DNA of 38,367 nucleotides from Candidatus Chisholmbacteria bacterium RIFCSPHIGHO2_01_FULL_52_32 (lineage in GTDB: Bacteria > Patescibacteriota > Microgenomatia > UBA1400 > Chisholmbacteraceae), in NCBI GenBank assembly GCA_001816585.1, contig MHCJ01000002.1, forward strand, positions 1 to 38,367, read 5' to 3'. The first letter of the stretch is position 1; each line of letters opens with the position of its first letter. Positions 8,421 through 38,367 of this stretch are shown piece by piece. The notes under the pieces were generated by a model that had not been told where the DNA came from, made no database searches, and saw only the letters and a list, made by a program, of their open reading frames with translations. The translations under genes and the position numbers were made by a program.

Positions 8421-8442
8421 GAAAGCATACAGGGTTTGCTCT

Positions 8443-8748
8443 ATGAACACGCAAAATCCCATCATTTCAATCAGTGTCGCAGCCAAACTACTAAAATTGC
8501 ACCCAAGAACGCTTATGCTTTATGAAAAAACAGGGCTTCTTGCCCCCTACCGAACTCAAACCAGCCGACGCCTCTATTCAAAAGATGATCTGGCAATTCT
8601 TCACTTCATCAAATTCCTCACCCAGGAGAAACGAATAAGCCTGCAAGGGGTCCTCTACCTTCTCAAAGCCATACACCTCGCGGAGGGACGTAACCTCGAA
8701 CTGCAAAGACTTCTTTTCCCGGAGTACAAAAAAAAGACTCTCGTTTGA
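8443..8748 (+). CDS. MerR-family transcriptional regulator, HspR-like
   Basis: Start taken at the internal ATG 8443, downstream of the promoter. ..ISISVAAKLLKLHPRTLMLYEKTGLLAPYRTQTSRRLYSKDDLAILHFIKFL.. matches the MerR N-terminal HTH pattern. Confidence 0.75.
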   Translation: MNTQNPIISISVAAKLLKLHPRTLMLYEKTGLLAPYRTQTSRRLYSKDDLAILHFIKFLTQEKRISLQGVLYLLKAIHLAEGRNLELQRLLFPEYKKKTLV

Positions 8749-9156: not shown

Positions 9157-11259
9157 CTAAAAAGCGCTGCGGTCGAGCTCACTTTCACGCCCACCCAGCC
9201 GTTCAATGAAAAGCGAAACACGCTGCGAAAATTGCGGTCGGAAAAGAACGAATAACAGCGCCACTACACTCACCACAATTCCCGAAATCACATCCAACCA
9301 CGGTTCATAGCGAAGTTTGATCGTCAGTATCCCCGATCGTACGGGCCGAAGCACAATCATCCCCATTGGATCCCGCACAAGCGAAACGGGCATAGAGGTC
9401 TCACCAACGCGCCAGAACGGCGAGGAAGCAACCGCCAATCGAACGCCCTGACCCTCGTTGACTTGCGCCGCAATATCCACTTCCCGCTCCCCCGTAAATC
9501 GGACCACAGCCGGCTCTCCGAGTTTCTCAACATACCCCAAAAGACCCGACGCATCATCGCCCTTTTCAGGAGGTAAAACGGACAAAATCCCCAAATCAGC
9601 CACCTCCGCCAGCCCCCGTTTTTGTCTCCGGTAAATCATATCTCCCGCACGCTCCCAAACCTTCTCCCACCCCTCCATGCCGTCAAACTTCGAAGGATAC
9701 CGGAAATCGTGGTAAACCTCCAAAGATTCCTCCCCATGTACCACCAGATACGAAACGCCCAAGACTTTAAGCCACAGATCGGCAAGTTCCGCATCTCTCC
9801 CCTCTCGGATTTGATACGATCCATGCGGCCACCACGGATTAAGCGATCCCTGTTCTCCTCCTCCCCGAACCTGCGCCACATCAAACCAGCTGTTAAGCCA
9901 GAACGCCGAACTTCCCGAAACATACGCCCGAAGAGAGCAATTGCCGACTTCCCTGCAGTCATCATCCATGAACCGGGACAACGCTTCTCCCACCCGGTAT
10001 TCCGCAGTCTCAGGAAAAGCCACCCCCTCAGAAATCATGATTCCCCTCTTGAAAAAAAACGGCAATCCGAGGACAAGCATCCCCGCAAACACCCAAAGTC
10101 GCAGTGTACGCCCCATATTTCTGTCCCAAATGAGCCCGGTGAGGGACATCCCCACCGCAAGGTCCAAAGACCGTCCGAACCGGCTGTAGTCCTGCCAAAA
10201 ATCCGGATCGGCAGTAAAAGCTGCCACGGTCAAACTGCCGTATACGAGAAGCCCCATTATCCCGATCACAGTGAGAGGCGAAGCCGTTCGGAACCACTTC
10301 CGCGCCGCAACCACCCCGAGGATCGCAGGAATAACCACGAAAAACTGTCTGAAAAGCCCAGCCACAACCACCGCAAACGGTCGACCGCCCAGGGACGGCG
10401 CACGGAGAACCGTGAAGAAGAAGCCCGGGGTAAACCAAAGACTCGTCATCAAAACCCCAAGCAGAGTAACCACCAGAAGTCGCGCGAATAACTTCACAAG
10501 ACCCCCCGAAGCGATTGTCGGCCGAACCACAGCCGCCAGCAGAAGCACCAGAATCCAAAGGAAAAAGGAAATCAGGCTCAACGAATCCACCAGAATCATC
10601 GCTCCAACCGCCAAAGCCAGCCACCTCGCCTTCCCGACCTCCCATTTCTTGGCCAGCATGAGGCAGAGAAGCAATGCCATCATGACGAACACAAAACCGA
10701 TCACACCCTGCCCCTCGCCAAGGTAAAATGCCGAGAACATCAGAAAGGACGGAAATCCGAGAGGACGAAGCACACCAAATATCTGGGGAAATAAAACCAA
10801 TACAGAAGGTATCAATATGGTAAAAAATGTAACAAAAATGGCGGGTATTGTCGCGTCAACGGATGACGCATTCAAGCGAGCCTTCTTCTGATCGCCGGAC
10901 ATAAAGGAAAGCTCTCTCACCAAGAACAGGCTGACCGCGTAAACAGCCCCCACCACCCCCACCACTCCAGACGCCACCATCCCTCGCCACACGCGAAATA
11001 ACGATCCGGGATCGTTATAAGGAAAAAGAGACAAAATCCAAGGCAAAACAGGCGACCCGATGTGCTGCCCGGGGATTCCCAAAAACCAATACCGGTTCCA
11101 ACTCCAACCACCCAAACCCTGCCCCAAAAACCGCGCTTTCGCAAGCACAAACCCATCCGCCGCCCCCATCCACGCCGGACTACGCACACCCAATGCCGGG
11201 AAAACCCATAGGAAAGAAACGAAAAGAATCAGAAAGAGCCCAAACCAAGTCCACTTCAC
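9157..11259 (-). CDS. Large polytopic membrane protein, putative GT-C-type glycosyltransferase (YfhO-related organisation)
   Basis: 700 aa with a GTG start. More than 10 hydrophobic helices, then a soluble C-terminal domain and a terminal TM (..LTIKLRYEPWLDVISGIVVSVVALLFVLF..). The N-terminal ..WNRYWFLGIPGQHIGSPVLPW.. resembles the loop-1 region of YfhO-like proteins. Family assignment is tentative. Confidence 0.5.
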   Translation of the reverse strand: MKWTWFGLFLILFVSFLWVFPALGVRSPAWMGAADGFVLAKARFLGQGLGGWSWNRYWFLGIPGQHIGSPVLPWILSLFPYNDPGSLFRVWRGMVASGVVGVVGAVYAVSLFLVRELSFMSGDQKKARLNASSVDATIPAIFVTFFTILIPSVLVLFPQIFGVLRPLGFPSFLMFSAFYLGEGQGVIGFVFVMMALLLCLMLAKKWEVGKARWLALAVGAMILVDSLSLISFFLWILVLLLAAVVRPTIASGGLVKLFARLLVVTLLGVLMTSLWFTPGFFFTVLRAPSLGGRPFAVVVAGLFRQFFVVIPAILGVVAARKWFRTASPLTVIGIMGLLVYGSLTVAAFTADPDFWQDYSRFGRSLDLAVGMSLTGLIWDRNMGRTLRLWVFAGMLVLGLPFFFKRGIMISEGVAFPETAEYRVGEALSRFMDDDCREVGNCSLRAYVSGSSAFWLNSWFDVAQVRGGGEQGSLNPWWPHGSYQIREGRDAELADLWLKVLGVSYLVVHGEESLEVYHDFRYPSKFDGMEGWEKVWERAGDMIYRRQKRGLAEVADLGILSVLPPEKGDDASGLLGYVEKLGEPAVVRFTGEREVDIAAQVNEGQGVRLAVASSPFWRVGETSMPVSLVRDPMGMIVLRPVRSGILTIKLRYEPWLDVISGIVVSVVALLFVLFRPQFSQRVSLFIERLGGRESELDRSAF

Positions 11260-21898: not shown

Positions 21899-21940
21899 CC
21901 CCTAAACCCTATACCCTAAACCCTAGACCCTAGACCCTCT
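21899..21940. repeat. Telomere-like 7-nt tract CCCTANA x6, spanning the stop of CDS 21916..22824 and the spacer before the next gene
   Basis: ccctaaa ccctata ccctaaa ccctaga ccctaga ccctctc. The sense strand has six GGG runs with 4-nt loops. The last codons of the epimerase (..GEGLGSRV*) come from this tract. Confidence 0.85.
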
Positions 21941-22824
21941 CCCCCTATTCGTCCTTCTCCATACTCCTCACTCCTTACTCCCATGACGTACTCCGCAACC
22001 GCTTCCTTCGCCGTCCGCCTGGGTTTCCACCCGTAACCGCAAAGCTTGTTTATATCCGATAACATCTCTCTGGGATCAGCAGCACTCGCTTTACCCCCGG
22101 CAATCTTAATCACCGATCTCCCTCCCGTTGCCTGTTTCACCCATCCGGCAAGCGTCAAAAGGCGGACCCGCCGCTGTCCCCCGACATTGAAAATGCCTTC
22201 CGGGAGACGCTCAGCGGCCAAGACATTGGCCGCTGCGACATCGTCAACATGAACATAGTCCCGCCGCTGCATGCCGTCCCGGTTAACGCGAATTGGCTTC
22301 CCCGCGAAACCGGCCCGTACCCATTGGGCGAGCGGCCCGGACATCCCACTCTCTTCCCTGATCCCGGCTCCCAACACGGTCGAGCAGCGGAGGATCACAA
22401 CCGGAATTCCCATCCGCTTCCCCACCTCTCTCGCCGCCCGCTCTGCGAAAAACTTACTCTTCCCATAAATGGTCGTCGGGCTGGGCGTCTGGTCCTCGGA
22501 GAACGGCGGCTGTAAACCCAGGTAAACTGCCTGCGACGATCCAAGCACCACCTTGGCAGGCAGCCGACCGGTCTTCACAGCCGTGACAAACAGATTTTCC
22601 GTCCCTTGTGTATTAACCGCAAAATCCGCCTCCGTCTCGGTCCGGATCCCTGCCAAATGTACCACTACCTCTCCTCCGGAAATATTCGCTTCCCAATCGG
22701 ATCGGGAACGCACGTCACCGGCAAAGTCCCTAACTGAGTATCCGCCGGTCCGCAATGCCTCTTCAGTATGCAAGCCGATAAAGCCATGTGCGCCGGTCAG
22801 TAAAACCGAAATGTTCTTTTTCAT
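21916..22824 (-). CDS. NAD-dependent epimerase/dehydratase (extended SDR)
   Basis: Start taken at ATG 22824 (MKKNISVLLTGAHGFIGLH), 1 nt after the upstream TGA. YGKSKFFAE provides YxxxK. Confidence 0.8.
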   Translation of the reverse strand: MKKNISVLLTGAHGFIGLHTEEALRTGGYSVRDFAGDVRSRSDWEANISGGEVVVHLAGIRTETEADFAVNTQGTENLFVTAVKTGRLPAKVVLGSSQAVYLGLQPPFSEDQTPSPTTIYGKSKFFAERAAREVGKRMGIPVVILRCSTVLGAGIREESGMSGPLAQWVRAGFAGKPIRVNRDGMQRRDYVHVDDVAAANVLAAERLPEGIFNVGGQRRVRLLTLAGWVKQATGGRSVIKIAGGKASAADPREMLSDINKLCGYGWKPRRTAKEAVAEYVMGVRSEEYGEGRIGGEGLGSRV

Positions 22825-22825
22825 T

Positions 22826-23905
22826 TCAAAACCCGGATGCCGCAATAATTTTCGGCAAGATCTCTCCCGCTTTCCCGCGGAAAAAGATGTCCCCCTTTTG
22901 CAGGTAATCCATGTTCCGCGAGTGCGGCGCAACGCCGAACACGGGATTAATAGCCACGATCGAAAGCCCTTTCCTCCTTGCCTGTTTGACCACTTCCCGC
23001 CGGTCAACTGAGACCCCGATAACGAGAAGTGAACGCACCTTTGAGCCGAATGTCACCGGAAACCGGTCGGGGAAAATACTTAAGCGGGTTTGAGTATAAG
23101 GGATGCCAACCTTCATCAGGATATCATCCACGTTATCAGTCAGGATCTGAACCACCGCCCCCCGCCGATAAAGATCCGCAAGGACGCGGTGCGAATCGGA
23201 CGGACGGGCTTTAATCGCCTGCGTTGTAAAGTCACCAAACTCCCGAAACGCACTTCCGACATCCCGGACGAGCTTCCCGGGCAACGGATCGCGATCTCCA
23301 AAGATGAGTTCTCCCCGTTTCGGATCGTCAACCGAAAACACCTCATGGATTGCACCCAAGAAAGGCAGCCCGGATTCCGCGGAGAGGCCGGAACCGCAGT
23401 ACACGGCAAACGGAGTCAAACATCTCAAGTCATAGTCGTGGGATTCCGAAACGAGCTTTGGCGGATCAATCTTTAAGCGGGGTTTCCCCAGCAGCCTGCG
23501 TGCCACGGTTCGCAGGTCGTATCCGGTCGACCTCCCAATCTCAATCCGCAACCGACGATACCCCGGGTGCCGGAGGTCCCCGAAAGACCGAACCTTCATC
23601 GGATACCCTCCTAAGTTGCGACTCCCCCCGACCTGATCGTGTAAAGCTGAAATCTGGTCGCGTATAGCCCGACTCTCCAGGAAAAAGTAAGCCCGCCTGA
23701 TGAACAGTTCATCGTTTCGCAGTCCGAAATCAGCGGAAAAATACACCGTCCGTGATTCCGGATATCGCACCCTTCCCACAACTTTGTCCCGCTTCCATCC
23801 CCACAAGACCAGCGGCTTGCCTTCGCACGCAAGCTTTCGTGAGATCGCCCGAAAGAACGCTTGCTCGCCGCGGGTTAACTTCCACGTTTTCTCCAGTTGC
23901 TTCAT
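22826..23905 (-). CDS. Sirtuin-fold (SIR2-like) protein lacking the catalytic-His/zinc module, with an N-terminal domain of about 165 aa of unknown function
   Basis: ..FAVYCGSGLSAESGLPFLG.. corresponds to GAGISxxSGIPxFR. ..VVQILTDNVDDIL.. corresponds to TQNIDxL. ..SLLVIGVSV.. and ..SIVAINPV.. are also present. Only about 30 aa separate TDNVDD from LLVIGVS, and there is no HG motif. Confidence 0.6.
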   Translation of the reverse strand: MKQLEKTWKLTRGEQAFFRAISRKLACEGKPLVLWGWKRDKVVGRVRYPESRTVYFSADFGLRNDELFIRRAYFFLESRAIRDQISALHDQVGGSRNLGGYPMKVRSFGDLRHPGYRRLRIEIGRSTGYDLRTVARRLLGKPRLKIDPPKLVSESHDYDLRCLTPFAVYCGSGLSAESGLPFLGAIHEVFSVDDPKRGELIFGDRDPLPGKLVRDVGSAFREFGDFTTQAIKARPSDSHRVLADLYRRGAVVQILTDNVDDILMKVGIPYTQTRLSIFPDRFPVTFGSKVRSLLVIGVSVDRREVVKQARRKGLSIVAINPVFGVAPHSRNMDYLQKGDIFFRGKAGEILPKIIAASGF

Positions 23906-27004: not shown

Positions 27005-29281
27005 CTATCGCTTGGCAAGGAGCGTATAGGTTAACCCGCATAGTGTTATGAGCAGTGTAACTGCCGAGATGATCAACCCGAGCTTCCAATACGTCGGCTC
27101 AAAACTGAAGACTACCCGATGCTCTCCCGCCGGAACCTTAATCGCCCGAAACGCATAGTTCGCCCGTAGGATTGGCATCGACGTCCCATCCACCGTTGCC
27201 GTCCATCCCGGGTAAAATGTATCTGCCAACACAAGATACCCCTCCGAAGCCGATTGTACTGCGACCTCAAGCGAGTTCTCCCGATCATCAGTGATCGACG
27301 CCGTCCCCGTTCCCGATCCCGTAGAAGGAAGTATCGCCTCCGGGACCTCCAAAACAACCTCCGTCCGCAGATCAAATGCGGGATCCATAATCGCTTCCAA
27401 CGCCTCCTCTCCACCTCTGACAGCCCTGGCGGAGTCAACAAACAACACCCGCGGATACGCCCCGCTGTATTCATAGATGTACGTGGCTCTCGCTGGAACC
27501 GTAACCGTCTGCACCCCACCATCTCCGGACAAATAGGCGTAATGATCAATGGTTTTCGAAAACGGAATCGTTTTGCGAAGCGCAAGGTCCTTATCCTCAA
27601 TCGGCAGATCCGCCAATAAAAATTTCACGCTCTGAAGTCCCAGCGACCGTTTAAACGTAGACGACAGTCGCAACACGCCCTCCTTTGGATCCAATATTGT
27701 TCGTTCTCCGTTCAGCAACTGCTGCCGCGGCAAAAGCAGGGCAAACCACTCCCGGTTTGAAGGTATCCTTGAGAGCAAACTGAAATCCACCGGCATGAGA
27801 TTCTGAAACTCCTTTTGCAGCCCAACATCCCGAACGTACTGGTAATCCAGGTTGTTGGTCCCATGGCTATAGACACGGTAACCGGAATCGCTAAGCTCAC
27901 GGCTCAAAAACTCCGCTGCCTCTGTTGAGGAAAACCACTCCTTCCCCGACGTCGAAAGATTTACTTGCCGCACGTTGTTGTAGAAGAGATCAATAAACAC
28001 AAGGCCGACAGCCAAAGCGCTAAACAATTGAAGCACCTTGCTTCCGCCTTCTGCTCTCCCAATTCTCCGCGCCAGGAAACCCCGTACGTCGTCGAACCCG
28101 AAACCTGCCAGAATCGCCAGACAAAAATCAATAAAGAAAAGGATTTTAACGGGATAACGGAAAAACTTGAGGCCGGGCAATGTCTCCCAGAGAATCCCAA
28201 ACAGCTGTGTCGTCCGGCCTAAACCATACACAATGGATCCGATAAGCAAAATGGCAAACACCACCACGAATCGTTTTTTTAAACCCTTCGCTATTGCCCC
28301 CAACCCAAACAGGAGCGGCAAAAGCCCGACATACCCATATAGTGCCTGGATGTTGACAGTCTGAGACACCAGCGGGTGATACCCGGGTTCACTCCGGAAA
28401 AGATCATAGGCCCGGGGGAAAACAAACAGCCGAAACGTATCCAGTGGCCATGCGGTCGCCGCTGCCGCCTCAAACCCCAATCCCTCCGCCCGCTGCGATA
28501 ACTGGGTCAGCTCAAATGTCGGCAGAAGCTGAACCGCACTCATTCCCATTCCCAAAGCAATTGCGACAGCAAAAAATAATCCTGTCTTCAAAGGCAATGC
28601 CTGCTTCCGGTGCTGCCCCCGCACTTCAGGGAAAAGCACACCGATACTAACGAAGAACACCGCACTGATAAGGACGGTATAGTAGAACATCTCGATATAC
28701 CCGGCGAGGATCTGGAAGACAAACACCAATGCCAGGGAAAACGAAAAGACCGCCTTCCTTGTTGTGACCAAGCGCTCAACCGCCAACAAGACCAGGGGCA
28801 AGTACGCCACCACCAAGATGATGTTGATCTGATGGATGTGAGTCAAGAAAAATCCGGAAAGGCTGTACACCAATCCAGAAATCACGGAGGCAGATTTCGA
28901 CTGAGCGAGCGATATCCGACAGAACAAATAGGTGAAAATCGCGGCGAAGACAAAATGCAAGAAGAGATTGAGATTAAACGCAAGTAAAGTCGGAAGCACT
29001 CGAAACCAGAGAAGGTGAAACGGATACAGCGCTCCTATCTGGAGTTCCGCAAAAACCGGAAAGCCGTTGCCGAGTAAGGAGGTCCAAAACGGCAGCCTTC
29101 CCGAAACCAGCATCTCCCGATACCAATCCTTAAGGGGGTAATTGAAAAGCATGAGGTCGGAGTACACCACGCCCGTGTGTAAGAAAGTCTTACCGGAAAG
29201 TACGGGGAAGAAAACGGCTGTTAGTAGCCCGACCAGAACCACAACAAAAAGCAACTCAGATAAATGTTTCACTTTCATCAT
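27005..29281 (-). CDS. YfhO-family membrane protein (GT-C-type glycosyltransferase)
   Basis: 758 aa. C-terminal signature: LADTFYPGWTATVDGTSMPILRANYAFRAIKVPAGEHRVVFSFEP. Confidence 0.8.
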   Translation of the reverse strand: MMKVKHLSELLFVVVLVGLLTAVFFPVLSGKTFLHTGVVYSDLMLFNYPLKDWYREMLVSGRLPFWTSLLGNGFPVFAELQIGALYPFHLLWFRVLPTLLAFNLNLFLHFVFAAIFTYLFCRISLAQSKSASVISGLVYSLSGFFLTHIHQINIILVVAYLPLVLLAVERLVTTRKAVFSFSLALVFVFQILAGYIEMFYYTVLISAVFFVSIGVLFPEVRGQHRKQALPLKTGLFFAVAIALGMGMSAVQLLPTFELTQLSQRAEGLGFEAAAATAWPLDTFRLFVFPRAYDLFRSEPGYHPLVSQTVNIQALYGYVGLLPLLFGLGAIAKGLKKRFVVVFAILLIGSIVYGLGRTTQLFGILWETLPGLKFFRYPVKILFFIDFCLAILAGFGFDDVRGFLARRIGRAEGGSKVLQLFSALAVGLVFIDLFYNNVRQVNLSTSGKEWFSSTEAAEFLSRELSDSGYRVYSHGTNNLDYQYVRDVGLQKEFQNLMPVDFSLLSRIPSNREWFALLLPRQQLLNGERTILDPKEGVLRLSSTFKRSLGLQSVKFLLADLPIEDKDLALRKTIPFSKTIDHYAYLSGDGGVQTVTVPARATYIYEYSGAYPRVLFVDSARAVRGGEEALEAIMDPAFDLRTEVVLEVPEAILPSTGSGTGTASITDDRENSLEVAVQSASEGYLVLADTFYPGWTATVDGTSMPILRANYAFRAIKVPAGEHRVVFSFEPTYWKLGLIISAVTLLITLCGLTYTLLAKR

Positions 29282-29324: not shown

Positions 29325-31460
29325 TTACTGCTGGCTTTTTAAAAGTACCCGGTTGTAATACTCCATCGCCTTTGCCTCGTTCCCCATCCGTGCGTACAGA
29401 TTGGAAAGAGACAGGAAAATTTCCCGATGGTAAAATGACGGATCAATCGCAAGCATTCCTTCATATGCCTCAAGAGCACAGGTAGCCAGTTTGTCCCCCT
29501 GCCAATCCTCAATCGCGCCTCCGGTCTCCCGGACGCGGATGGCTTTCCCCTCCTGTTCCGCGCCAAGGCACCACTCCGCCAAGTTCTTCTTCGCCTGAAG
29601 CTCAAACGTCCTGGCTTGGTCGGAATATCCGCCCCTCTCAAGAGCAATCGTGTCTCCCAAAACGTTCTTCCTCTTCATGGAATGTTCTGCCCGCTCGGGA
29701 CGGAGGTACCGCTTGGGATCCGAATAGGAGTAACTGAAATGGTCAAGATCAATCACGGCTTTTGGCTCCTTGACGACCTTCCACAGCGTCCCGTCAGGAA
29801 TCAGGAAAAGCTCCTCAGAAACCGGAATAACATTCCTGGTAATCAAAAAGATGTCATGTTCCCCGATGTTCTTTGCGATAAATTCATCAATTGCCCCAAC
29901 CGCCTCCTCATCCGAAAGCACACCGTTCTTCCCAATTGCGCGGGGCACAACCAACTCAGGATGCTCTGCTGCCAACCGCTCCCGCTTCCAGTTAAAGGTA
30001 AAGCTGTTATCCCACACCAGGACCACATCCTTTCTGAAACCCTCAACCTGCTGGAGATACAAGGGTATCGCCGACTCCTGATCACCGAGCGTAAACAGAA
30101 CACTGCCAGAAGGCAGCTTCCCCAGCAGATTTTCTCCGAACTCCCGCGCCAAAACGTAGTCGTGCCGGTTCAGAAGCCGCCAGTTGACCGCCATCTGCGG
30201 CAGGAGAACCGCAAGTCCCAAAAAACTAGCCAGCCACAACTGACGTTTCCTTCCCGCAACCGCTCTCTCAATTCCCAAACCGATCAAAATACTAAACCAG
30301 ACATAAAAGGGTATCAACCAATAGTTGTACTCCGTCCCCTGCTCATAAACACTCACCAGAAGGTAAAGGAAACCAGCCACTACCGCCCCAAACTCCAACA
30401 CCAACCCATACTTTTCTCCCTGCTTCCGCAATCGGTTCCAACCAACCAGGCCAATGATTATTCCGACTACGAAGAATTCCTGGAAGAACAGCCGGGGAAA
30501 ACTCGTAAGCTTCTGCGCATCAAAGAGTTTCAACGAATCTCTCCCCGCCAGGTAAACCTTTCCGCTGATATGCCCGACAAACGAGCCAAGAGAATCGATA
30601 TTAGTCCACAGGTATTCAGGCTGTGCCGCCGAACGTATGGGTAAATAGAGGTAGGGCAAAACGGCAGCCAGAACAAACACTAGGAGAAACCTCCGCCAAT
30701 CCCTCCAGCCCAATGAGGGGTATGCCCGCCGTCCCCCAACGTGTTGATACTGAAACGGCAACAGCCCGAGCCTTCCCAAAAACCAGAAAAAAGCCGGCAG
30801 GAAAACCACGGCAGACGGATGGTTGGCAAACGACAGCCCCAGTAGTAAAGACAGAAGCAGCATCCTTCGCTTCAGGCTCGCTTCGATGGTCTCAACCTCT
30901 TTCTCGGTACCATACTCGCTGATCACGCTGACTATCCCCCAAAACAGGAATGCCGTGAAGAAGCCGATCAGGCTGTACACCTCTGCGTTGATCGACTGCG
31001 CCCACAATGAATAGCTAAAGCCAAGCGTTAACCCCACCACAACCGGAACCAAGATCGCAGGCACACCATCGCCAACATTTCTCTGACTGCGATCCTGACC
31101 CTTCCCTTGGTTTTCTCTTACTCCACGAATAATCTTCTGCGCTGTCAACCCCACGAGAACCGCAGCCCCGGCCCCCCACAATCCCGAAAACGCACCCACG
31201 AGTTTTGCAAACGGTACGGATTCCCCAAGGATAGTTCCCAGAACCCTGGTCCACACCCACCCCAGTCCCACATACAGCGGAAACCCGGGCGGATAAACGA
31301 TACCCAAGGCTTTGATGCCCGCCAGGAATATCCCGGAGTCCTGCCAATAGACGGTGGCAGGCGACGTCCAAACATACACCCCGTAAACGGGCAAAAAAAT
31401 TGCCACCGCAGTCACCAACGATCTGATCTTCCCCGATTGACCGCCCTCTGTCTTATTCAT
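29325..31460 (-). CDS. DUF2723/TMEM260-like GT-C membrane protein with a C-terminal TPR region
   Basis: Start taken at ATG 31460 (MNKTEGG..); the ORF track begins at an upstream TTG at 31475. ..YVWTSPATVYWQDSGIFLAGIKALGIVYPPGFPLYVGLGW.. is the DUF2723 N-terminal pattern. The C-terminal TPR-like stretch is ..AYEGMLAIDPSFYHREIFLSLSNLYARMGNEAKAMEYYNRVL.. Confidence 0.7.
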   Translation of the reverse strand: MNKTEGGQSGKIRSLVTAVAIFLPVYGVYVWTSPATVYWQDSGIFLAGIKALGIVYPPGFPLYVGLGWVWTRVLGTILGESVPFAKLVGAFSGLWGAGAAVLVGLTAQKIIRGVRENQGKGQDRSQRNVGDGVPAILVPVVVGLTLGFSYSLWAQSINAEVYSLIGFFTAFLFWGIVSVISEYGTEKEVETIEASLKRRMLLLSLLLGLSFANHPSAVVFLPAFFWFLGRLGLLPFQYQHVGGRRAYPSLGWRDWRRFLLVFVLAAVLPYLYLPIRSAAQPEYLWTNIDSLGSFVGHISGKVYLAGRDSLKLFDAQKLTSFPRLFFQEFFVVGIIIGLVGWNRLRKQGEKYGLVLEFGAVVAGFLYLLVSVYEQGTEYNYWLIPFYVWFSILIGLGIERAVAGRKRQLWLASFLGLAVLLPQMAVNWRLLNRHDYVLAREFGENLLGKLPSGSVLFTLGDQESAIPLYLQQVEGFRKDVVLVWDNSFTFNWKRERLAAEHPELVVPRAIGKNGVLSDEEAVGAIDEFIAKNIGEHDIFLITRNVIPVSEELFLIPDGTLWKVVKEPKAVIDLDHFSYSYSDPKRYLRPERAEHSMKRKNVLGDTIALERGGYSDQARTFELQAKKNLAEWCLGAEQEGKAIRVRETGGAIEDWQGDKLATCALEAYEGMLAIDPSFYHREIFLSLSNLYARMGNEAKAMEYYNRVLLKSQQ

Positions 31461-31486
31461 AAATCGTAAATCCAAAATCCTCTCCC

Positions 31487-31519: not shown

Positions 31520-33772
31520 CTATTCCTCCTCGCCTGATGGTGTCGCTTCCCCGCTCGGCGTTGCCTCCCCAGCACTTGCCGTTGCTTCCCGCGCTTGAGC
31601 CTCGATCGCCTTATCCTGAATATCAAGAATCATCCCTTGGGCCGCCTGTCCCAACTCAAGCTCACCCGGTGTTAGCACCGATTGGTACTTCTGGAGATAG
31701 TCGATCGCTTGAAGGTAGTCGGGCGGTTCAAGTTTATATCCGTACACCCTTGCCAAACTCGCCAAGGCTTCCTTGAAATACGGATCGATCTCGAGCACCC
31801 GCTTGTACTCCCGTATCGCGTCATCAAAAAGCTTGACTTCTTCATACATAAATCCTGCATTGAAAAAATGCCGCGCGTAGTAGAAAACCACCGTCTCTTC
31901 AAACATCGGTGTGTTGCGCCGCACCTTCTTAACCATCTCAAGATTAATCCCGTCCCAAAGCGCATCGTTTTCCGTCCGCAAGTCTTCAAGTTTGAGATCC
32001 TCTCCCTTCTTCTTGACTAAAAACAACAGGTTTTTCGGATACAGCACATACTTTTTTTCAAGCTCGGGATCGTGAACCACCAGATCCGGCCCGACGTAAA
32101 CCGGCCGCCTGCCGTAGTTGGCATCCACAATCTGGGTGGCCGTGGTAAATTGCTTCCCTTCCAACGGAAAAGGGATAAAAAGGTCAGGGTACTTTCTCAG
32201 GAGTTGAGGCGTGAACCAGGGAAGGTGGAATTGTCCAGGGGTAAAGCTAACTCGGCTATCCTTCCCCGCCAGCTCAACCATCCGAAAGTAATCGACCGTC
32301 ATATTGGGAACGTCACCGGAAAGTAAGATCAGCGCGTCCGGCTCGGTAGGACTATACGCTTGTCTGGCATACAACTGCGTGAAGGTATTTCCCCCGCCGT
32401 TTGCCTTGGCAAAGTTCACCAAAACCAAACCGGAAAAGAGAAGAAAAAGATACGCCTTCCCCAACCACAATCCCAAAAGGTAAGCTGTTTTCCTCACCCG
32501 AATCCCTTCGATAAGCCGGTACAATTCGTAGATACCGAAACTGATGGCCAAGGCCACGAACAGGTGAGGCAGCATTTGGAAACGCCGTACGGTCGACTGG
32601 TTGAAGCTGTCGGAAAGCGGGAAATTCGCGTACGAAAGGAAGAGGATGCCGGAAAACCCCAATCCCAAGAGCAAAAACCAAAACATCCGCCGCTCCTGCC
32701 GGAACAGGCGGTATCCGCCGTAGACAGCCAACCCAAACCCCACCACCGAGAAGTCAAGAATGAGGTTTCGAAGGTAAAACACCACCTGCTCTACCGGTGT
32801 TGCTCTCACCACGGGCGATGATCCGACCAAAAACGAGCCGAAGGTGCCGAAGTCGCGCCTGACAAGCGCCGCCAGGGCACCGCCGACCCCATCGACCTCC
32901 CCCCAGTTTAAAAGCGGTTTTCTTGCAGCAATCCATAAAAGCGAGACAAAAAACGGCAGCGTGCCCAGAAGCAAAGCTCCCAGCGTAACTCCCAGCCGCC
33001 TCCAGTCGCCGACAAACGTAAGGAGAGGCCGCCAGATAAGATACAGCACGGCGGGAAACACCAAGATGATGGTTTGGTGATGCGTCAACGCCAGCCCCCC
33101 GACAAGTGCCAAAAGGATGAATCGCCAAATCCCACCCCGACCGACCCTCTTCAACACCCCTTCTTTTGTTGTAGGCAGATTTCCTTGGCTGCCGATCGCA
33201 ACCGCCAACAGAAGCAAAGAAACGGCAAAAAAGTTATTCAGGGGGAACACCTCAAACTTCGTTGCGTATTGCCAGAAGATCAGCGAAAACGCGAGAAACA
33301 TGCTGGCGGAGAACGCTACCAGTCTTTTCCCGCGTTCTCCCACTTGCCCCGCGGTTCCCGCTTTGCGGGGACTTTGCGTGGCTCCCACCTTATCATTCCC
33401 GTGTGCTTCTGAATTTGCATACCCAAACAACGCCAGGACCAGAAAATAGAACGTAAAAACCGTCAGAGCTTGCAGGAATGCCGAAACCGCATTCACCCGT
33501 TCAACCGGATTCATCGTCTGCGCTGTCAGCCTGCCTGCCTCAAGGATCGGCTTTCTCATCCACTCTTGTCGTGACGACAGATACCCGAGAAGCGTATTCA
33601 CCGGATAGCTCGGTTGGTGCGGAACGCCCAATACAATCGCCGCCGTCACCATCTCGGTTGAGTCTCCCGGCGCAATCGACGGATAAAGGGTAAATAAATA
33701 CACCGAAAACGGCAACCCAAACGCCAGAATCGGCAAAAAGATACTAACGAGTCTTTCTATCACTTTCTTCAT
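31520..33772 (-). CDS. DUF2723/TMEM260-like GT-C membrane protein with a C-terminal TPR region
   Basis: ..YLFTLYPSIAPGDSTEMVTAAIVLGVPHQPSYPVNTLLGYL.. is the N-terminal pattern. The TPR-like stretch is ..FMYEEVKLFDDAIREYKRVLEIDPYFKEALASLARVYG... The tail contains the repeat GEATPSGEATPSGEEE. Confidence 0.7.
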   Translation of the reverse strand: MKKVIERLVSIFLPILAFGLPFSVYLFTLYPSIAPGDSTEMVTAAIVLGVPHQPSYPVNTLLGYLSSRQEWMRKPILEAGRLTAQTMNPVERVNAVSAFLQALTVFTFYFLVLALFGYANSEAHGNDKVGATQSPRKAGTAGQVGERGKRLVAFSASMFLAFSLIFWQYATKFEVFPLNNFFAVSLLLLAVAIGSQGNLPTTKEGVLKRVGRGGIWRFILLALVGGLALTHHQTIILVFPAVLYLIWRPLLTFVGDWRRLGVTLGALLLGTLPFFVSLLWIAARKPLLNWGEVDGVGGALAALVRRDFGTFGSFLVGSSPVVRATPVEQVVFYLRNLILDFSVVGFGLAVYGGYRLFRQERRMFWFLLLGLGFSGILFLSYANFPLSDSFNQSTVRRFQMLPHLFVALAISFGIYELYRLIEGIRVRKTAYLLGLWLGKAYLFLLFSGLVLVNFAKANGGGNTFTQLYARQAYSPTEPDALILLSGDVPNMTVDYFRMVELAGKDSRVSFTPGQFHLPWFTPQLLRKYPDLFIPFPLEGKQFTTATQIVDANYGRRPVYVGPDLVVHDPELEKKYVLYPKNLLFLVKKKGEDLKLEDLRTENDALWDGINLEMVKKVRRNTPMFEETVVFYYARHFFNAGFMYEEVKLFDDAIREYKRVLEIDPYFKEALASLARVYGYKLEPPDYLQAIDYLQKYQSVLTPGELELGQAAQGMILDIQDKAIEAQAREATASAGEATPSGEATPSGEEE

Positions 33773-33910
33773 CTCTCATCATCTCCCCTCTATGAATTCA
33801 TCCGCATTTAACCACGTACGCTTCCACTCATCAATCCACTGATAGTATCCGTACCAATCCTGCGCGCTTCGCTTGGCTCTCCTTGGCTCCCCTTGAACGC
33901 AACCGAATAT

Positions 33911-33945
33911 ATGAATCATGAATTATGAGTAATGAATAATGAATT
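33911..33945. repeat. Heptamer tract ATGAATN x5 (intergenic)
   Basis: atgaatc atgaatt atgagta atgaata atgaatt. Nearby are three copies of cc(c)tttgaacRc, at about 33888, 33958 and 34011. Confidence 0.8.
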
Positions 33946-34004
33946 ACAAATAAGGAAACCCTTTGAACACAACCATCAGGATTAGCTTGTAGCTTTTTTA
34001 GTTT

Positions 34005-34194
34005 CTGATTCCCCTTTGAACGCATGCTACTCGAGAACGAAGTGAGCGAATACCACTGAAATGTCATCGACTGTCCGACGAAGGGTTGATCCCGAGGAGT
34101 TTGATGACAAAGGATGAGCGAACGAGTTCCCGAGAGACCGTTCACTGGGGTGCCCTTTCTTCCGCCGCTTTCTTTGGGCACGCAAAGAAAGCGG
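34005..34194. ncRNA. Candidate structured noncoding element, copy Y (partner of 1717..1982); strand unresolved
   Basis: A perfect 12-bp hairpin spans 34165-34194 (ccgctttctttg / ggcacg / caaagaaagcgg). The loop-edge gggcac (34176-34181) is complementary to gtgccc (34150-34155). Blocks are shared with copy X. It sits in a 514-nt gap with no convincing ORF. Confidence 0.4.
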
Positions 34195-34286
34195 CAATCC
34201 ATTTTGGATGAGTAAAGAAATGATCTCCAGTATTGGTGAGCAAAGAGATGACAAACCATGCTTAGCTTCAGCACAGACAACACGAC

Positions 34287-37200
34287 TTAGGGTGCATGGG
34301 CCCGGATGACCGCCTCCTTCCTCCTCCTCTTCAGCAGTAATGGCAAGAATGGTGCCGCCCCGAACAGCAGCCAGACACGTTCCGGGATGACGATATACGC
34401 CCAGTCCACATGGAAGGGAGAGGTTCCTCCGACCGTCCACATGCCGAAGATGTGGGAAGCACCGGAGTAGTTGGAGGAGGTGGAGGAGAAATCATCATTT
34501 TGGGCCCCATTGACGGTCTGTTCTCCCGCCCACTCGGATGGATCATCACACCCGGTTGAAACGGTACAGCTGCTGTACCGGACAAGGTCCGTCCCGGCCC
34601 CGGCTTCTTCCGTCCATATGGAATACAGGACACTCGCATCAGTATCTAAAGAGAGGGAAGGATAGCTGTCATCATTATCTTCAAGATCGGCAGCCAGGAT
34701 GGCCGATCCCCAGGTCGTTCCCGTCCTCCGTTTGTAGGAGACTTGGTCTGTTCCGGCGTCATCGATGAAAATGAGATGGACCAGGGAGCCGTCGGAAACC
34801 GCCGACAGGGTATCGGCAAGGTTGGCATTGACGCTATCGATAGAATCCTGGCTTCCGGGCGCCCCGACCTCGAGCCTGCTCTCCACCCCGGTATTATCAT
34901 AGGAGATCGTCACTGATCCCACACTCCAGGTGAATCGCACCCGGTGCCGCCGCATGGTCAGGTTCCCCACCGTATCTGAAGGAGGGGCATTAGCTCCTCC
35001 GGTGGTGAAGGTCACGGTTTGCAATACCGTACAGTCTCCGCCGTCACAGGTCGGACCCCAGGTTTGGGAAGCGGAAGCCTTGGCAACCTGGGTGCCGTCC
35101 CATTCCGTGATATCGGTGTTGACGGTCAGGGTGGCCGCTTGGTTGGCTTTGAACTTGACGACCCAGCTGGTCGTTTGGGGGACATTCACTTCATTGATAT
35201 TCAGGCTCTGCCCGCACACCCGGACCAGAGAAGTGGTGTTACTTACCCCGCATTCTCCTGCTGCAGCTCCGGTATCATTCCTATTGTCCTCAAAGCCGAT
35301 GACCATCCGCTTCGTCTGGTCTCCCAAGGTCCCAGTAATCCCTCCAAGAGATGGTCTTCCCGAATAGTGGCTTCCCGTCCCCCCGCCGAAAGTATCCGCC
35401 CGGATGTCCATGACAGCGTAGGGGGAGGTATACCCCACCCCTGTTGAAGCAGCCGGCCATTGGGGAGCCCCCGTCGTCCCATCAAACTTCTGCATGAAGA
35501 CATTCTTGTCAGAGGTAACGGTATTCCCGACAAAGCTCCGGTCATCCTCCCAGACCACGTACGGATTTCCCGAGTCAACCGCAATCCGAGGATATCGTTG
35601 GTTTCCCGAAAGAGCAAAGTCATGGGAGAGCATCAGCTCACCGGCAGGGTTGTAGAGCTCGGCACTTGTCAGGATCCCGTTGTTATCCCCACCGGTGGTC
35701 AGGACTTTCCCGGTCGAAAGTAAGACGGAAATATGCCTGCGAGTGCCGAGGTTCAACCCGCCTGTCGTATAGGTAAATGTCCCCGCGGAGGGATCGAACA
35801 GCTCCGCAGTGGTGAGAGAAGAACCACTTAACCCACCGATGAGAACAGTTTTCCCGTTCGGTAGGAGGATGGCACTCTGCTCCGTCCGCGCGGTCTTCAT
35901 ACCACCAGGTGTGGTCGTAAACGTCTCGGTTGCGGGATCGAACAGCTCCGCGACGGTCGAATTCCCGGTAACCAGGACTTTCCCGGTATCCAGAAGCAAT
36001 GCCTGGTGTTCATAGCGTGTGTTGGCAAGTCTTCCGGTGGTAAAGGTAAAGGTGTTCCCTTGGGGATCATAGATCTCGGCGGTGGACAGATCCCCCGCAA
36101 AATTCCCCCCCACTACGAGCACCCTGCCATTGGAAAGCAGGGTCGCGGTATGTCCGCTGCGGGCGGTGTTTAAACCCCCGGTCGTCAGGGTGAAGGTTCC
36201 GGTCGAAGGATTGAACAGTTCAGCGCTGCTCCGATTCCCCGAGGGGCCCCCGCCTCCGACCACAAGAACCTGACCGCTGGGGAGAAGGACCGTTTGCCCC
36301 TCGGTACGGTTCTCGATGAGGTTCCCCGTTGCAGTGAAGGTGCCGCTTGCCGGGTCATAGAGCTCGGCCGATGAATGTTTTGTGCTGCATTCGCTTGCCC
36401 CGGCACAGCCCCCTGCCACCAGGACCTTGCCGGTATTGAGCACGGCCATGGAAAACCGGTGCCGCTCGACCGCCATATTGCCGGTTGAAGCAAAAGTAGA
36501 CGCGGCAGGATCGTACAATTCCGCCGTCGATGCTATCGTGGTACAGCCAAAATTGGTACACCCCCCCGCAACCAGGACCTTCCCATTGGGAAGCAGGACA
36601 GCGCTGAATCGCTGCCGCTGGGTCACCATCCCTCCGGTCGTCGTGGTAAACCGGTCGGTCGTCCCACTCGGCCATTGGTTCGTCAATCCACCGGATGTGG
36701 GGTCGTTGGTTCGTTGTCCGTAGATCTTCCAACTCCCGCCGCCGTGATTGGCTCTCGAGACGTTCACCCCGCTCGATGAGCCGCCGCCCCCTCTCCCCGC
36801 CCAGGCAAAGAAGATCGAGGAGCCGGACACCACCGCATCCGGGCTTTCCTGGTCTGCCAGATCCACCCCGCTGTTGACCATCTGGTCGATCGAATACACC
36901 TCAGCAGTGGAGAGGGAAGCCGCCACACTAACTCTCCCTCCCGCGATGAGGATGTTACCGTTCGGGAGGAGCGCGACTGTTTGGTCATAGCGCCTCCCGA
37001 TCAGGTTACCGGTGGAAGAAAAAGTCCCGGTTGCCGGATCGTAGACCTCGGCTGTAAAGAGAGAACCACCGGAACTTCCCCCCACAACCAGCACATGGCT
37101 ATTGTTAAGAAGGGCTGCGGTATGTTGGGAACGGTTCCCGATGAGGTTACCGGTAGAAGCAAAGGTTCCGGTTGCCGGGTCGTAGAGCTCGGCTGTGGAG

Positions 37201-38367
37201 ATGTAGGCCCCATCGTATCCCCCCGCCACCAGCACCTTGCCGTTTCCAAGCAAGGTGGCGGTGAAGTCCTCGCGTAGTCCGATCAGGTTACCGGTAGAAG
37301 AAAAAGTCCCGGTTGCCGGGTCGTAGAGCTCGGCTGTGGAGAGGGAATTAGAGCCTACAACGATCCCCCCCGCCACCAGGATACGGCCATCCGGAAGGAG
37401 AGTGGTGGTGTGTCTCTCTCTCCTTCCGATCAGGTTACCGGTGGAGGAGAAAGTGCCGGTCACCGGGTTGTACAGTTCAGCCGTCGAGATGGTGACAATA
37501 TCGTCTCCTCCACTGACTAACACCCTTCCATCAGCAAGCAAGGTGGAAGAGAAATCATAGCGCCTGCCGATGAGATTGCCGGTAGAAGAAAAAGTGCCGG
37601 TTGAGGGGTTGTAGATCTCTGCTGTGGAAACCGAAACAACAGAAACGCCATACCCCCCCGCCACCAGAACCGCGCCATTGGGGAGCAAGGTCGAGGAGAA
37701 GTTCCGCCGCCTCCCGATCAGGTTACCGGTGGAGGAGAATGTGCCGGTCGAAGGGTCGTAGAGCTCGGCTGTGGAGACGGCAGCACCGTCATATCCCCCC
37801 GCCACGAGGACTTTTCCATTCGGAAGGATGGTAGCAATAAACTCTTGCCGCCTCCCGATAAGGTTCCCCGTCGATGACCATGTCTGTCCCCAAAGTGGTG
37901 AGCCGCTCGAATTGATCTTCTGGGCATAGATGTTCCCTTCCCGTTTGAGGGTTCCCGATTCTGCCTTGCTGGCGCTGTTACTGTCCCAAGTCAGGATGGC
38001 GTTGGTCCCGTCTATGGCAAGGGAAGGATTACGGTTGCCGTCCCCGGTTGATGATAGCCCGATATCCTCCGGATTGTTCTGGTTGACACCGGCTTGGTCA
38101 TCCCCCCAATTCTTGGCTCCGTCGGAGCTTGACAGCTTCTGTCCCATGATCCGAAGTGGCGGTCCGGTGATGGCCGGGAGGGCTCCGCAGGAGTTATTCG
38201 TTCCCCCTCCTCCGTTACAGGCTCCTGCTGCGGCAAGGTTCACGTTCGTCTGCCACCATGCGTTGGAGTCGTAATTCCATGACAGTCCCCAGTTCTGGAT
38301 TGCAGCATCACGGTCATCTTCCCATGCCACAATCACGTTGTTTGAAGTATCAATCGCCAGAACCGGC
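34287..38367 (-). CDS. Giant secreted/surface protein, 5'-partial: two 7-bladed Kelch-type propellers, a C-terminal domain related to that of the GT2 fusion, and a PEP-CTERM-like tail
   Basis: The frame stays open upstream of the GTG at 38336 to the window edge (..PVLAIDTSNNVIVAWEDDRD..). There are 14 blades of 43-52 aa following the pattern TFSSTGNLIGRR..F..TLLPNGKVLVAGG....STAELYDP.TG. The tail is ..HVDWAYIVIPERVWLLFGAAPFLPLLLKRRRKEAVIRAHAP. Confidence 0.85.
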   Translation of the reverse strand, partial: PVLAIDTSNNVIVAWEDDRDAAIQNWGLSWNYDSNAWWQTNVNLAAAGACNGGGGTNNSCGALPAITGPPLRIMGQKLSSSDGAKNWGDDQAGVNQNNPEDIGLSSTGDGNRNPSLAIDGTNAILTWDSNSASKAESGTLKREGNIYAQKINSSGSPLWGQTWSSTGNLIGRRQEFIATILPNGKVLVAGGYDGAAVSTAELYDPSTGTFSSTGNLIGRRRNFSSTLLPNGAVLVAGGYGVSVVSVSTAEIYNPSTGTFSSTGNLIGRRYDFSSTLLADGRVLVSGGDDIVTISTAELYNPVTGTFSSTGNLIGRRERHTTTLLPDGRILVAGGIVVGSNSLSTAELYDPATGTFSSTGNLIGLREDFTATLLGNGKVLVAGGYDGAYISTAELYDPATGTFASTGNLIGNRSQHTAALLNNSHVLVVGGSSGGSLFTAEVYDPATGTFSSTGNLIGRRYDQTVALLPNGNILIAGGRVSVAASLSTAEVYSIDQMVNSGVDLADQESPDAVVSGSSIFFAWAGRGGGGSSSGVNVSRANHGGGSWKIYGQRTNDPTSGGLTNQWPSGTTDRFTTTTGGMVTQRQRFSAVLLPNGKVLVAGGCTNFGCTTIASTAELYDPAASTFASTGNMAVERHRFSMAVLNTGKVLVAGGCAGASECSTKHSSAELYDPASGTFTATGNLIENRTEGQTVLLPSGQVLVVGGGGPSGNRSSAELFNPSTGTFTLTTGGLNTARSGHTATLLSNGRVLVVGGNFAGDLSTAEIYDPQGNTFTFTTGRLANTRYEHQALLLDTGKVLVTGNSTVAELFDPATETFTTTPGGMKTARTEQSAILLPNGKTVLIGGLSGSSLTTAELFDPSAGTFTYTTGGLNLGTRRHISVLLSTGKVLTTGGDNNGILTSAELYNPAGELMLSHDFALSGNQRYPRIAVDSGNPYVVWEDDRSFVGNTVTSDKNVFMQKFDGTTGAPQWPAASTGVGYTSPYAVMDIRADTFGGGTGSHYSGRPSLGGITGTLGDQTKRMVIGFEDNRNDTGAAAGECGVSNTTSLVRVCGQSLNINEVNVPQTTSWVVKFKANQAATLTVNTDITEWDGTQVAKASASQTWGPTCDGGDCTVLQTVTFTTGGANAPPSDTVGNLTMRRHRVRFTWSVGSVTISYDNTGVESRLEVGAPGSQDSIDSVNANLADTLSAVSDGSLVHLIFIDDAGTDQVSYKRRTGTTWGSAILAADLEDNDDSYPSLSLDTDASVLYSIWTEEAGAGTDLVRYSSCTVSTGCDDPSEWAGEQTVNGAQNDDFSSTSSNYSGASHIFGMWTVGGTSPFHVDWAYIVIPERVWLLFGAAPFLPLLLKRRRKEAVIRAHAP
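34290..34412 (-). other. C-terminal tripartite sorting-signal candidate (IPER motif, hydrophobic helix with APFLP, KRRRKE)
   Basis: Aligns with the tail of the 1640-aa protein under the consensus [VI]PE[KR]..(L)L....APFLP..LK..RKE. Confidence 0.55.
36890..37900. repeat. Tandem DNA repeats of 141/147 nt (7 units) encoding the first Kelch propeller
   Basis: The unit core (c/t)ccgat(c/g)aggttaccggt(g/a)gaag... recurs at 36996, 37137, 37278, 37425, 37566, 37713 and 37854. Units at 36996 and 37278 differ at only a handful of positions over about 65 nt by eye. Confidence 0.85.

Follow-up and report, generated by a model that had tools for sequence, protein, structure and literature searches.

A putative VPE-type C-terminal sorting signal and a small exosortase-family protein in Chisholmbacteria and other uncultured bacteria

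Patescibacteria (CPR, candidate phyla radiation) are abundant, mostly uncultured and host-attached, and little is known of the way in which they build their surface. Among the systems known to process surface proteins at the C-terminus, the PEP-CTERM/exosortase (EpsH, XrtA) system was described by Haft in 2006 (PMC1569441). In the ArtA/PGF-CTERM system of Haloferax volcanii, the C-terminal helix is removed and, coupled to this, a lipid anchor is attached (as summarised in 10.1101/2023.06.07.544157). Tripartite C-terminal sorting signals of this kind have been defined by eight attributes, together with a clause for dedicated systems (10.1101/2023.06.07.544157). Here, we analyzed a 38,367-nucleotide (nt) stretch of contig MHCJ01000002.1 (hereafter, the window) from Candidatus Chisholmbacteria bacterium RIFCSPHIGHO2_01_FULL_52_32, which encodes a giant fusion at its left (protein A), a Kelch giant at its right edge (protein B) and a small exosortase/archaeosortase-like (xrt-like) gene next to A. 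We consider it likely that the C-terminal segment of B is a tripartite sorting signal, cognate to a small membrane cysteine protease of the exosortase/archaeosortase family. This type of tail is called VPE-CTERM below, a name of convenience. The features concerned are the following.

34287-38367, minus strand: protein B, C-terminal 1359 amino acids (aa), with the N-terminus beyond the right edge (Pfam Kelch, colinear homologues)
34290-34412, minus strand: tail of B, the last 41 codons before the stop codon at 34287-34289; translation ..IVIPERVWLLFGAAPFLPLLLKRRRKE.. / HVDWAYIVIPERVWLLFGAAPFLPLLLKRRRKEAVIRAHAP
34377-34391, minus strand: V-I-P-E-R signature in the tail of B (translation)
34332-34376, minus strand: hydrophobic segment VWLLFGAAPFLPLLL in the tail of B (translation)
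34317-34331, minus strand: basic cluster KRRRK in the tail of B (translation)
34290-34316, minus strand: nine trailing residues of the tail of B (translation)
2843-7765, minus strand: protein A, 1640 aa (Pfam, NCBIfam, transmembrane (TM) and junction analysis)
2846-2941, minus strand: tail of A, FATVPEKSLILLVLAPFLPKALKGWRKEKNAH, with the V-P-E codons at 2924-2932
2221-2853, minus strand: mini exosortase/archaeosortase-family protein, 210 aa; its start codon (ATG, 2851-2853) lies within an 11-nt overlap with the 3' end of A

The tail shared by proteins A and B

The tail of B, as delimited in a first-pass annotation of this DNA, corresponds exactly to the last 41 codons of its open reading frame (ORF). 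In translation, the visible C-terminal end of B reads ..SPFHVDWAYIVIPERVWLLFGAAPFLPLLLKRRRKEAVIRAHAP before the stop codon, and that of A reads FEFATVPEKSLILLVLAPFLPKALKGWRKEKNAH / ..NFEFATVPEKSLILLVLAPFLPKALKGWRKEKNAH. The same annotation had claimed that the two tails align position by position, and this was borne out: when anchored on P-E, they align without gaps, with 13 of 28 residues identical and with the V/I-P-E register the same in both (BLASTP of tail against tail, E=1.7e-7). The basic region ends three residues before the stop codon in A and nine in B. The underlying DNA agrees at only 43 of 87 positions (49%) and the conserved residues lie on different synonymous codons, so the similarity is kept at the level of the protein. 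A recent DNA copy or gene conversion between the two tails is ruled out by this 49% identity.

The roughly 150 aa preceding each tail had also been described as related, which holds only weakly. Without the tails, the best BLASTP high-scoring segment pair spans 41 aa with an E-value of 0.004, while the profiles of the two pre-tail regions align in hhalign with a probability of 73%, an E-value of 3e-5 and 13% identity. Both regions seem to share a short repeated unit, '..DG..i.vvW.d..'. The 46% identity of the tails, compared with 13% in the region before them, argues for a separate and stronger constraint on the tail.

A hidden Markov model (HMM) of the tail was derived solely from 50 tails that precede enzyme homologues in other genomes, without the window sequences, and was run against every six-frame ORF of the window with a length of 60 aa or more. 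Exactly two of them matched, A with 37.2 bits (E 3.8e-10) and B with 30.2 bits (E 6e-8), and a core-only model gave 25.8 and 26.0 bits, respectively. The top score among composition-preserving shuffles (20,000 per tail) was 13.8 bits. The ~5,000 ORFs of 79 unrelated Kelch loci (590 kb) gave no match to the tail model, and no enzyme match was found there either. The match between the tails of A and B is real and far beyond chance.

The same 50 tails have a V/I/L, a P and an E that are near-invariant, followed further on by a K/R cluster. Position -1 is always V, I or L (35, 10 and 5 of the 50 tails, respectively), position 0 is P in 46 and D in 4, and position +1 is E in all 50. Position +2 is N in 19, K in 10 and R in 5, or another residue, but never P (0/50), with F following P-E in a single tail. 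Positions +3 to +17 are hydrophobic and +21 to +24 are almost all K or R, while Pro is present at +11 in 28/50 (56%) and at +14 in 33/50 (66%). The APFLP motif taken to be invariant is so only in these two tails. We describe the predicted VPE-CTERM signal as [V/I/L]-P-E-[K/N/R] with no spacer before a hydrophobic helix of ~15-17 residues, often with P-x-x-P, and a K/R cluster at the cytoplasmic end.

Most significant tail matches (56/63) lie within 30 residues of the C-terminus, and only 61 of the 1543 enzyme-locus ORFs with a length of 100 aa or more bear a tail. Comparison of these loci indicated that the tail type goes with the enzyme clade. Searching a database of 5.8 billion proteins with the tail profile returned only three short Anaerolineales fragments, the word index of this database being unable to seed such short queries.

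A small exosortase-family protein beside the tail

The xrt-like gene, whose product appears to be translationally coupled to A, itself ending in the same signal as B, had been put forward as an exosortase homologue. The evidence agrees: the protein scores 41.3 bits against TIGR04178 (cut-off 23) and has conserved CxG, NxxR and H motifs. TIGR04178 was passed by all 21 enzyme homologues examined, and none of the 21 reached the cut-off of a named subfamily (those tested were ArtC, ArtE, ArtF, XrtG, XrtX, XrtY and CrtC). The window enzyme remained below the cut-off with ArtC (28.4 bits, cut-off 100), XrtX (19.3, cut-off 170), ArtF (18.9, cut-off 150) and XrtG (10.1, cut-off 102.75). ArtC (TIGR03762) was the top-scoring named subfamily for 20 of the 21 enzymes, at ~28-40 bits against the cut-off of 100, with an alignment that covers only the catalytic C-terminal half. 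The match of the window enzyme to Pfam Exosortase_EpsH was also below threshold (18.2 bits, threshold 25.7), and a precomputed PF09721 annotation is present on many of its homologues.

Three motifs are invariant among the 21 aligned homologues: W-N-C-[IV]-G-W-Q-S (Cys108; C108-I-G110), N150-x-x-R153 and H173..G176. In the window enzyme, WNCIGWQS holds the candidate catalytic Cys108, and Asn150..Arg153 and His173 are the other candidates. Cys-x-Gly, Asn-x-x-Arg and His-x-x-x-Gly are the proposed catalytic triad motifs of the EpsH/exosortase family (PMC1569441); the His motif found here, H-x-x-G (G176), has one residue fewer than the published one (PMC1569441). The AlphaFold (AF2) model is all-helical, with 7-8 helices in 210 aa and a mean confidence score (pLDDT) of 80.5, and no solved structure resembling the enzyme was found by sequence or by fold. 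The xrt-like ORF is thus a bona fide member of the exosortase/archaeosortase family, and it falls into no named subfamily.

A total of 686 homologues of the enzyme were found, with identities of 57-76% among the best 120, including proteins from Woesebacteria and Daviesbacteria. Scanning one genome per GTDB species revealed 254 stretches encoding relatives of the enzyme, and 79 loci (referred to by L numbers) were compared. These belong to Microgenomates (Woese-, Davies-, Levy-, Curtiss-, Gottesman- and Chisholmbacteria), other Patescibacteria, Chloroflexota and two metagenome-assembled genomes labelled Bathyarchaeia. In 50 of the 79 loci, the enzyme gene is immediately preceded by a same-strand ORF with the ending [V/I/L]-[P/D]-E-x, ~16 hydrophobic residues and a K/R cluster. 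When counted strictly, a same-strand tail ends no more than 1.7 kb upstream of the enzyme gene in 40 of the 61 cases for which 3 kb or more of upstream sequence was available. Many genomes encode 2-4 paralogous enzyme-cargo pairs (L002/L041, L011/L033, L013, L014, L027 and L072), and two such pairs lie in series on the Woesebacteria contig MGFX01000001 (L002, L041). The system is mainly one of dedicated cargos beside their enzyme, with several paralogous pairs per genome, and not one of many cargos for a single enzyme.

In the earlier reading, the tail serves as a sorting or recognition signal and goes with the xrt-like gene. The adjacency in 40 of 61 cases, spread over several phyla, the different domains that precede the tail and the stand-alone secreted cargos described below are in keeping with this reading. 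The pattern that would speak for an ordinary anchor was not seen: no long C-terminal domain is shared, and within the data covered here no tail was seen apart from exosortase homologues. The pairing of tail and small enzyme, for which there is no curated name, is found again in hundreds of uncultured bacteria. No paper linking exosortases or archaeosortases with CPR, Microgenomates or Patescibacteria was found in the library searched, which is not proof of its absence from the literature.

In layout, the VPE tail comes close to PEP-CTERM. Like the VPE tail, the PEP-CTERM signal lies near the C-terminus and consists of a P-E signature abutting a hydrophobic stretch of ~14-17 residues, followed by a basic cluster; its partner resembles the enzyme studied here in being a polytopic membrane protein and in its C-x-G, N-x-x-R and H motifs, and the system is linked to polysaccharide synthesis genes, as is the case here (PMC1569441). 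VPE tails also fit the PEP-CTERM pattern of a ~14-residue hydrophobic stretch with a basic C-terminal region of ~5 residues. However, Pro-Glu-Pro is nearly invariant in PEP-CTERM, whereas the third residue is K, N, R or another residue here (P in 0/50), and the PEP-CTERM model gave no match. Classical exosortases have at least eight TM helices, whereas this enzyme of ~200 aa, polytopic but shorter than classical XrtA, is put at about 6-7 helices and by its AF2 model at 7-8. PEP-CTERM hosts are typically lineages with an outer membrane, whereas the hosts here are Patescibacteria and Chloroflexota. Finally, PEP-CTERM signals have a median of eight instances per genome, but here we mostly found one-to-one adjacency, with the cargo usually fused to a GT2 synthase.

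The archaeosortases differ in other respects. The cognate signal of ArtC is PEF-CTERM. This signature also contains P-E, but the enzymes in question fall below the ArtC cut-off, F follows P-E in only 1/50 tails and the hosts are bacterial. The ArtA/PGF-CTERM system, which acts on a cell-surface glycoprotein in a cell without an outer membrane, provides a mechanistic model, and glycosylation genes lie nearby. It differs from the system described here in its PGF signature, its larger enzyme and its many substrates. Small dedicated exosortases also exist, such as XrtG in Gram-positives, XrtX and ArtF, some of them with associated GT2 genes. For XrtG, no cognate tail is known to have been described. 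These enzymes are like the one in the window in size (model lengths 166-187 aa) and in the link to a GT2 neighbourhood, but their models score far below the cut-off (XrtG ~10, XrtX ~19 and ArtF ~19 bits), and in the present case it is the GT2 fusion that bears the tail.

With regard to the eight attributes of tripartite signals, attributes 1 and 3-5 (C-terminal place, at least three near-invariant residues, helix and basic cluster) hold for VPE tails (10.1101/2023.06.07.544157). Attribute 2 or the dedicated-system clause is covered by the two tails in the window, the third fusion at its edge and the adjacency in 40/61 cases (10.1101/2023.06.07.544157). For attribute 6, an N-terminal signal peptide, A has an internal segment only, and the stand-alone cargos of L075 have true N-terminal ones. 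Attributes 7-8 are reflected in ectodomains that differ (Kelch vs no Pfam match) and in Kelch homologues that lack the tail or carry another signal, with the caveat that an N-terminal GT2 module is common to most cargos. Taken together, the tail and the enzyme appear to be a variant of the tripartite sorting systems, matched by no curated signal model or named subfamily.

Cargo architecture and alternative explanations

Protein A contains, in order, two helix-turn-helix (HTH) domains, TM helices, a processive-type GT2 domain (~480-840), further TM helices, a signal-peptide-like segment, an ectodomain of ~570 aa and the tail. It has no N-terminal signal peptide; instead, an internal segment with a basic n-region, an h-region and an AxA-type c-region sits just before the ectodomain (..LLVIMAPFIPITATAQA|NSGEKF / RHMRWAGDAAFSLVVLITSLLVIMAPFIPITATAQA|NSGEKF, residues ~1005-1040, window ~4660-4760). 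This segment is kept in the orthologues of A, where it ends in ..AYA|, ..AEA|, ..SYA| or ..AQA|, which suggests that signal peptidase separates the synthase from the ectodomain. An internal n-h-c segment was also seen in L002, L006, L041, L050 and L055, and that of A and its close orthologues bears a tail-like APF(I/V)P motif. The GT2 part of A contains in-frame low-complexity DNA repeats (ACTTTGAACTTTAAAC.., GAACTGAAAACTGAAGACTGAAG..) at 5378-5431, 5830-5909 and 6466-6545, encoding inserts such as SKFKVQSEKLQFKVQSF and DS(K/R)Q(D/N)FS.QSSVFSS.

The architecture of A is shared by other cargos. Tail-bearing ORFs that also match the GT2 part of A number 35, and most ORFs with a tail only are cut by contig ends or frameshifts. 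All seven complete cargos analyzed with Pfam contain a processive-type GT2 domain, and their ectodomains have no Pfam match. At the N-terminus, two HTH domains are found in the patescibacterial cargos of L006, L048 and L055 and a receiver domain in L070 and L077, with L070 alone adding a c-di-GMP-type MshEN domain; L063 and L059 gave no N-terminal domain match. The usual cargo is a giant fusion of an HTH or receiver domain, a GT2 synthase, a signal-peptide-like segment, a variable ectodomain and the tail. Other arrangements occur. L075 encodes two stand-alone proteins upstream of the enzyme gene, each with an N-terminal signal peptide and the tail, and no GT2. In Chloroflexota, internal copies of the tail are present inside single ORFs (L067, 1-3990; L057, 643-4683; L042, 3-6134), as in ..TVPEYGIVFLLLVPLIPYLISLFW-RRRR-LAWRVAAFMLAASVTLLTLAKQVEPVTA|APDTHY.., which reads as tail, basic cluster, new signal peptide and next ectodomain. 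Given the variable preceding domains, these stand-alone cargos and the chloroflexotal repeats, the tail behaves as an independent module.

The visible part of B comprises two blocks of Kelch propeller repeats, a 'YDNTGVESRL' domain, a domain of ~170 aa (domain X) and the tail. Its C-terminal 446 residues have ten homologues in the database of 5.8 billion proteins. In five of these ten, the tail directly follows the 'ISYDNTG[FV]DSRL.TG' domain, and in four, domain X lies between that domain and the tail, as in B. One of these four, the cargo of L068, is a GT2 fusion adjoining an enzyme paralogue. A HMMER search with the first 1200 residues of B identified the colinear homologues P0160, P0156, P0167 and P0136. 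P0160 (2957 aa) has an HTH domain at 1-59, a GT2 domain at 320-644, Kelch repeats and then a VPER tail, ..EVGTIVPERSLMLVLIIPALPALALGHKRYR; P0156 and P0167 have the same layout, and P0136 ends in domain X and IIIPEYLWLFFAIGPLLPKLIRRSRKK. B is thus almost certainly the ectodomain end of another HTH-GT2 fusion, as judged from these homologues. Since the latter carry HTH and GT2 domains as A does, A and B belong to one fusion class and are probably paralogues with different ectodomains. The first-pass annotation had treated them as otherwise different proteins, which is probably incorrect, as P0160, P0156 and P0167 start with HTH and GT2 domains like A.

Only 7 of the 149 best Kelch homologues carry the VPE tail, and at least 8 of the 149, from other lineages, end in Cys-containing MYXO-CTERM-like tails such as GGCGCAAGPGDASWLL..RRRR. 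Such a swap of tails among Kelch homologues is the pattern expected of interchangeable sorting signals.

A further fusion gene is present at the left edge of the window.

1-1422, minus strand: second HTH-HTH-TM-(GT2) fusion, first 474 aa, paralogue of A; ATG at 1420-1422, running off the left edge

In blastx, it matches the L041 cargo (40% identity over 386 aa, E 1e-76), and its presence implies at least three fusion genes in this genome. Its tail lies outside the window, and so, probably, does a second enzyme. One of the low-complexity repeats noted in A is also found in this gene (219-245).

How B would be processed bears on the rival explanations. A first alternative leaves the signal and the enzyme family as above but has B processed by a paralogous enzyme elsewhere in the genome, so that there would be no case of one enzyme with two cargos; this is quite possible, though we lean against it. 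Many genomes do have 2-4 paralogous enzyme-cargo pairs, and the fusion at 1422 runs off the left edge, with a second enzyme probably just outside the window. Moreover, in L083, the closest relative of B (86% identical over the matched N-terminal segment, with a diverged tail, TGTIVPENALFLGLLIPGLPPAVGYWVRRRRRR), the Kelch gene is directly followed by two enzyme paralogues, each 43-45% identical to the window enzyme. These two genes are divergent and back to back (4673-5302, minus; 5396-6058, plus), and another HTH-GT2 fusion begins at 6925 in that locus. On the other side, no enzyme gene or remnant follows B, and an HMM of the tails adjoining orthologues of the window enzyme (type-1) gave 30.7 bits for B, close to the 34.7 bits of A, and only 6.8 bits for the L083 tail. 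These scores fit, without proving, processing of B in trans by the window enzyme. B would most likely be processed in trans, either by the window enzyme or by a paralogue outside the window.

A second alternative, which we regard as improbable, is that the tail is a mere conserved membrane anchor of one GT2-fusion family that is left uncleaved, the exosortase-like protein being non-proteolytic or acting elsewhere. The 35 tail-bearing ORFs that are GT2 fusions, as are the full-length homologues of B, would agree with this, as would the absence of a match to any curated sorting-signal model. However, the Cys, Arg and His motifs are invariant in the enzyme family, the tail is 46% identical against 13% in the adjoining domain, and the tail follows a variety of domains and is also borne by stand-alone secreted proteins that lack GT2; the internal repeats of tail and signal peptide in the polyproteins would make sense only if they were processed. 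As for a chance likeness between two ordinary hydrophobic anchors with basic ends, it is refuted by the independent HMM, the shuffles and the control loci and deserves practically no weight: a hydrophobic helix with a basic cluster is a common composition, but independent profiles gave 26-37 bits against a shuffle top of 13.8, ~5,000 control ORFs gave zero and the V/I-P-E register is the same.

Several points nevertheless weigh against a sorting signal with a cognate protease. No enzyme gene or remnant was found downstream of B: the ORF at 33831-34283 matches no family, and the region has no blastx match to ORFs of the loci. Likewise, the B-type fusions of L164 and L165 have no enzyme gene within 6 kb. 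The enzyme, at ~200 aa, is much shorter than classical exosortases, and its top named match, ArtC, is far under the cut-off. An NCBIfam scan of the isolated tails with E-values up to 10 returned none of the C-terminal signal models (PEP-CTERM, PEF-CTERM etc.); the sole match, of 12.5 bits, was to the C-terminal region of the PepA model. Its shortness and its many prolines make the hydrophobic segment unusual as a stable TM anchor. Given the probable paralogy of A and B, the similarity of their tails could be inherited and not reflect independent use of a signal. It should also be noted that we infer both cleavage, from the conserved catalytic motifs only, and lipid transfer.

If the tail is a sorting signal, as we favor, the following course of events can be proposed. 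The ectodomain would be exported, in the GT2 fusions behind the internal signal-peptide-like segment, with signal peptidase probably cutting at the AxA site. The tail helix and its basic cluster would hold the C-terminus in the membrane, where the enzyme would recognise V-P-E at the outer face. It would then remove the helix and probably move the new C-terminus to a lipid or another envelope acceptor, by analogy with ArtA and PGF-CTERM.

Gene neighbourhood and biological meaning

The other genes considered in the window are listed below.

8365-8748, plus strand: MerR-family regulator, divergent from A (Pfam MerR_1)
9157-11259, minus strand: 'g700', a polytopic membrane protein of 700 aa, with a large C-terminal domain outside the membrane (no Pfam/NCBIfam match)
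27005-29281, minus strand: YfhO gene (Pfam)
29325-31475, minus strand: TMEM260-like gene (Pfam)
31520-33772, minus strand: TMEM260-like gene, directly downstream of B (Pfam)

Matches to the MerR regulator were found by blastx upstream of the cargo genes in L006, L013, L073, L066 and L055, and in L164 and L165, too, a MerR gene is transcribed divergently from the cargo gene. Homologues of g700 are present near the enzyme gene in 31/79 loci. The window also contains a glycosylation island with five YfhO-family, two TMEM260-like, two short GT2 and three epimerase/dehydratase genes. The first-pass annotation had emphasized that the two cargo genes bracket this island. This is literally true in the window, where a third, partial fusion lies at 1422, but it does not extend to a general property: GT-C homologues (YfhO or TMEM260-like) flank the enzyme gene in only 7/79 loci, and the YfhO/TMEM260 island was rejected on this ground as a general partner of the enzyme. 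The conserved neighbours of the system are the divergent MerR gene and g700, rather than the glycosylation island. The link of B-type cargos with TMEM260-like and YfhO genes may still be real. The order in L165 (fusion, TMEM260-like gene, gene with a Glucodextran_B domain, YfhO) is close to that downstream of B, with BLASTP identities of 32% and 37%.

Some further observations were made. The 514-nt gap between B and the TMEM260-like gene (33773-34286) has a GC content of 45.7%, compared with 51.9% for the window, and contains no credible ORF; a perfect 13-bp hairpin without a T-run lies at 34164-34195, ~90 nt after the stop codon of B. A 363-aa epimerase ORF and a 359-aa ORF with a weak SIR2-like match overlap by ~180 nt (21916-23905, minus), and the epimerase probably starts later than the listed TTG. 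An Rfam scan of the window gave no match.

With respect to function, one further reading goes beyond the sorting signal, and we offer it tentatively, since we consider it unlikely: the HTH-GT2-ectodomain-tail giants may be polyprotein precursors, cut by signal peptidase at the AxA site and by the enzyme at V-P-E, so that each synthase would yield one surface protein (Kelch propellers in the case of B), to be anchored anew on a lipid or on the glycan which that synthase makes. If so, the cytoplasmic HTH or receiver domains would make the same protein a membrane-tethered regulator, and the chloroflexotal ORFs would string together several cargo units (tail, RRRR, signal peptide, next ectodomain). 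The ultra-small Patescibacteria would then build their cell surface in a manner not described so far.

A dedicated exosortase-type system in at least 254 GTDB species representatives would reveal major surface proteins from sequence alone. Its signal, placed on giant polysaccharide-synthase fusions with Kelch or other propeller-like ectodomains, would link these surface proteins to glycan synthesis. The system would add a V-P-E-K/N signature with a P-x-x-P helix and a minimal enzyme of ~200 aa to the exosortase/archaeosortase repertoire, and both the signature and the enzyme may be of use for annotation models and for mechanistic work on a structurally unsolved protease family.

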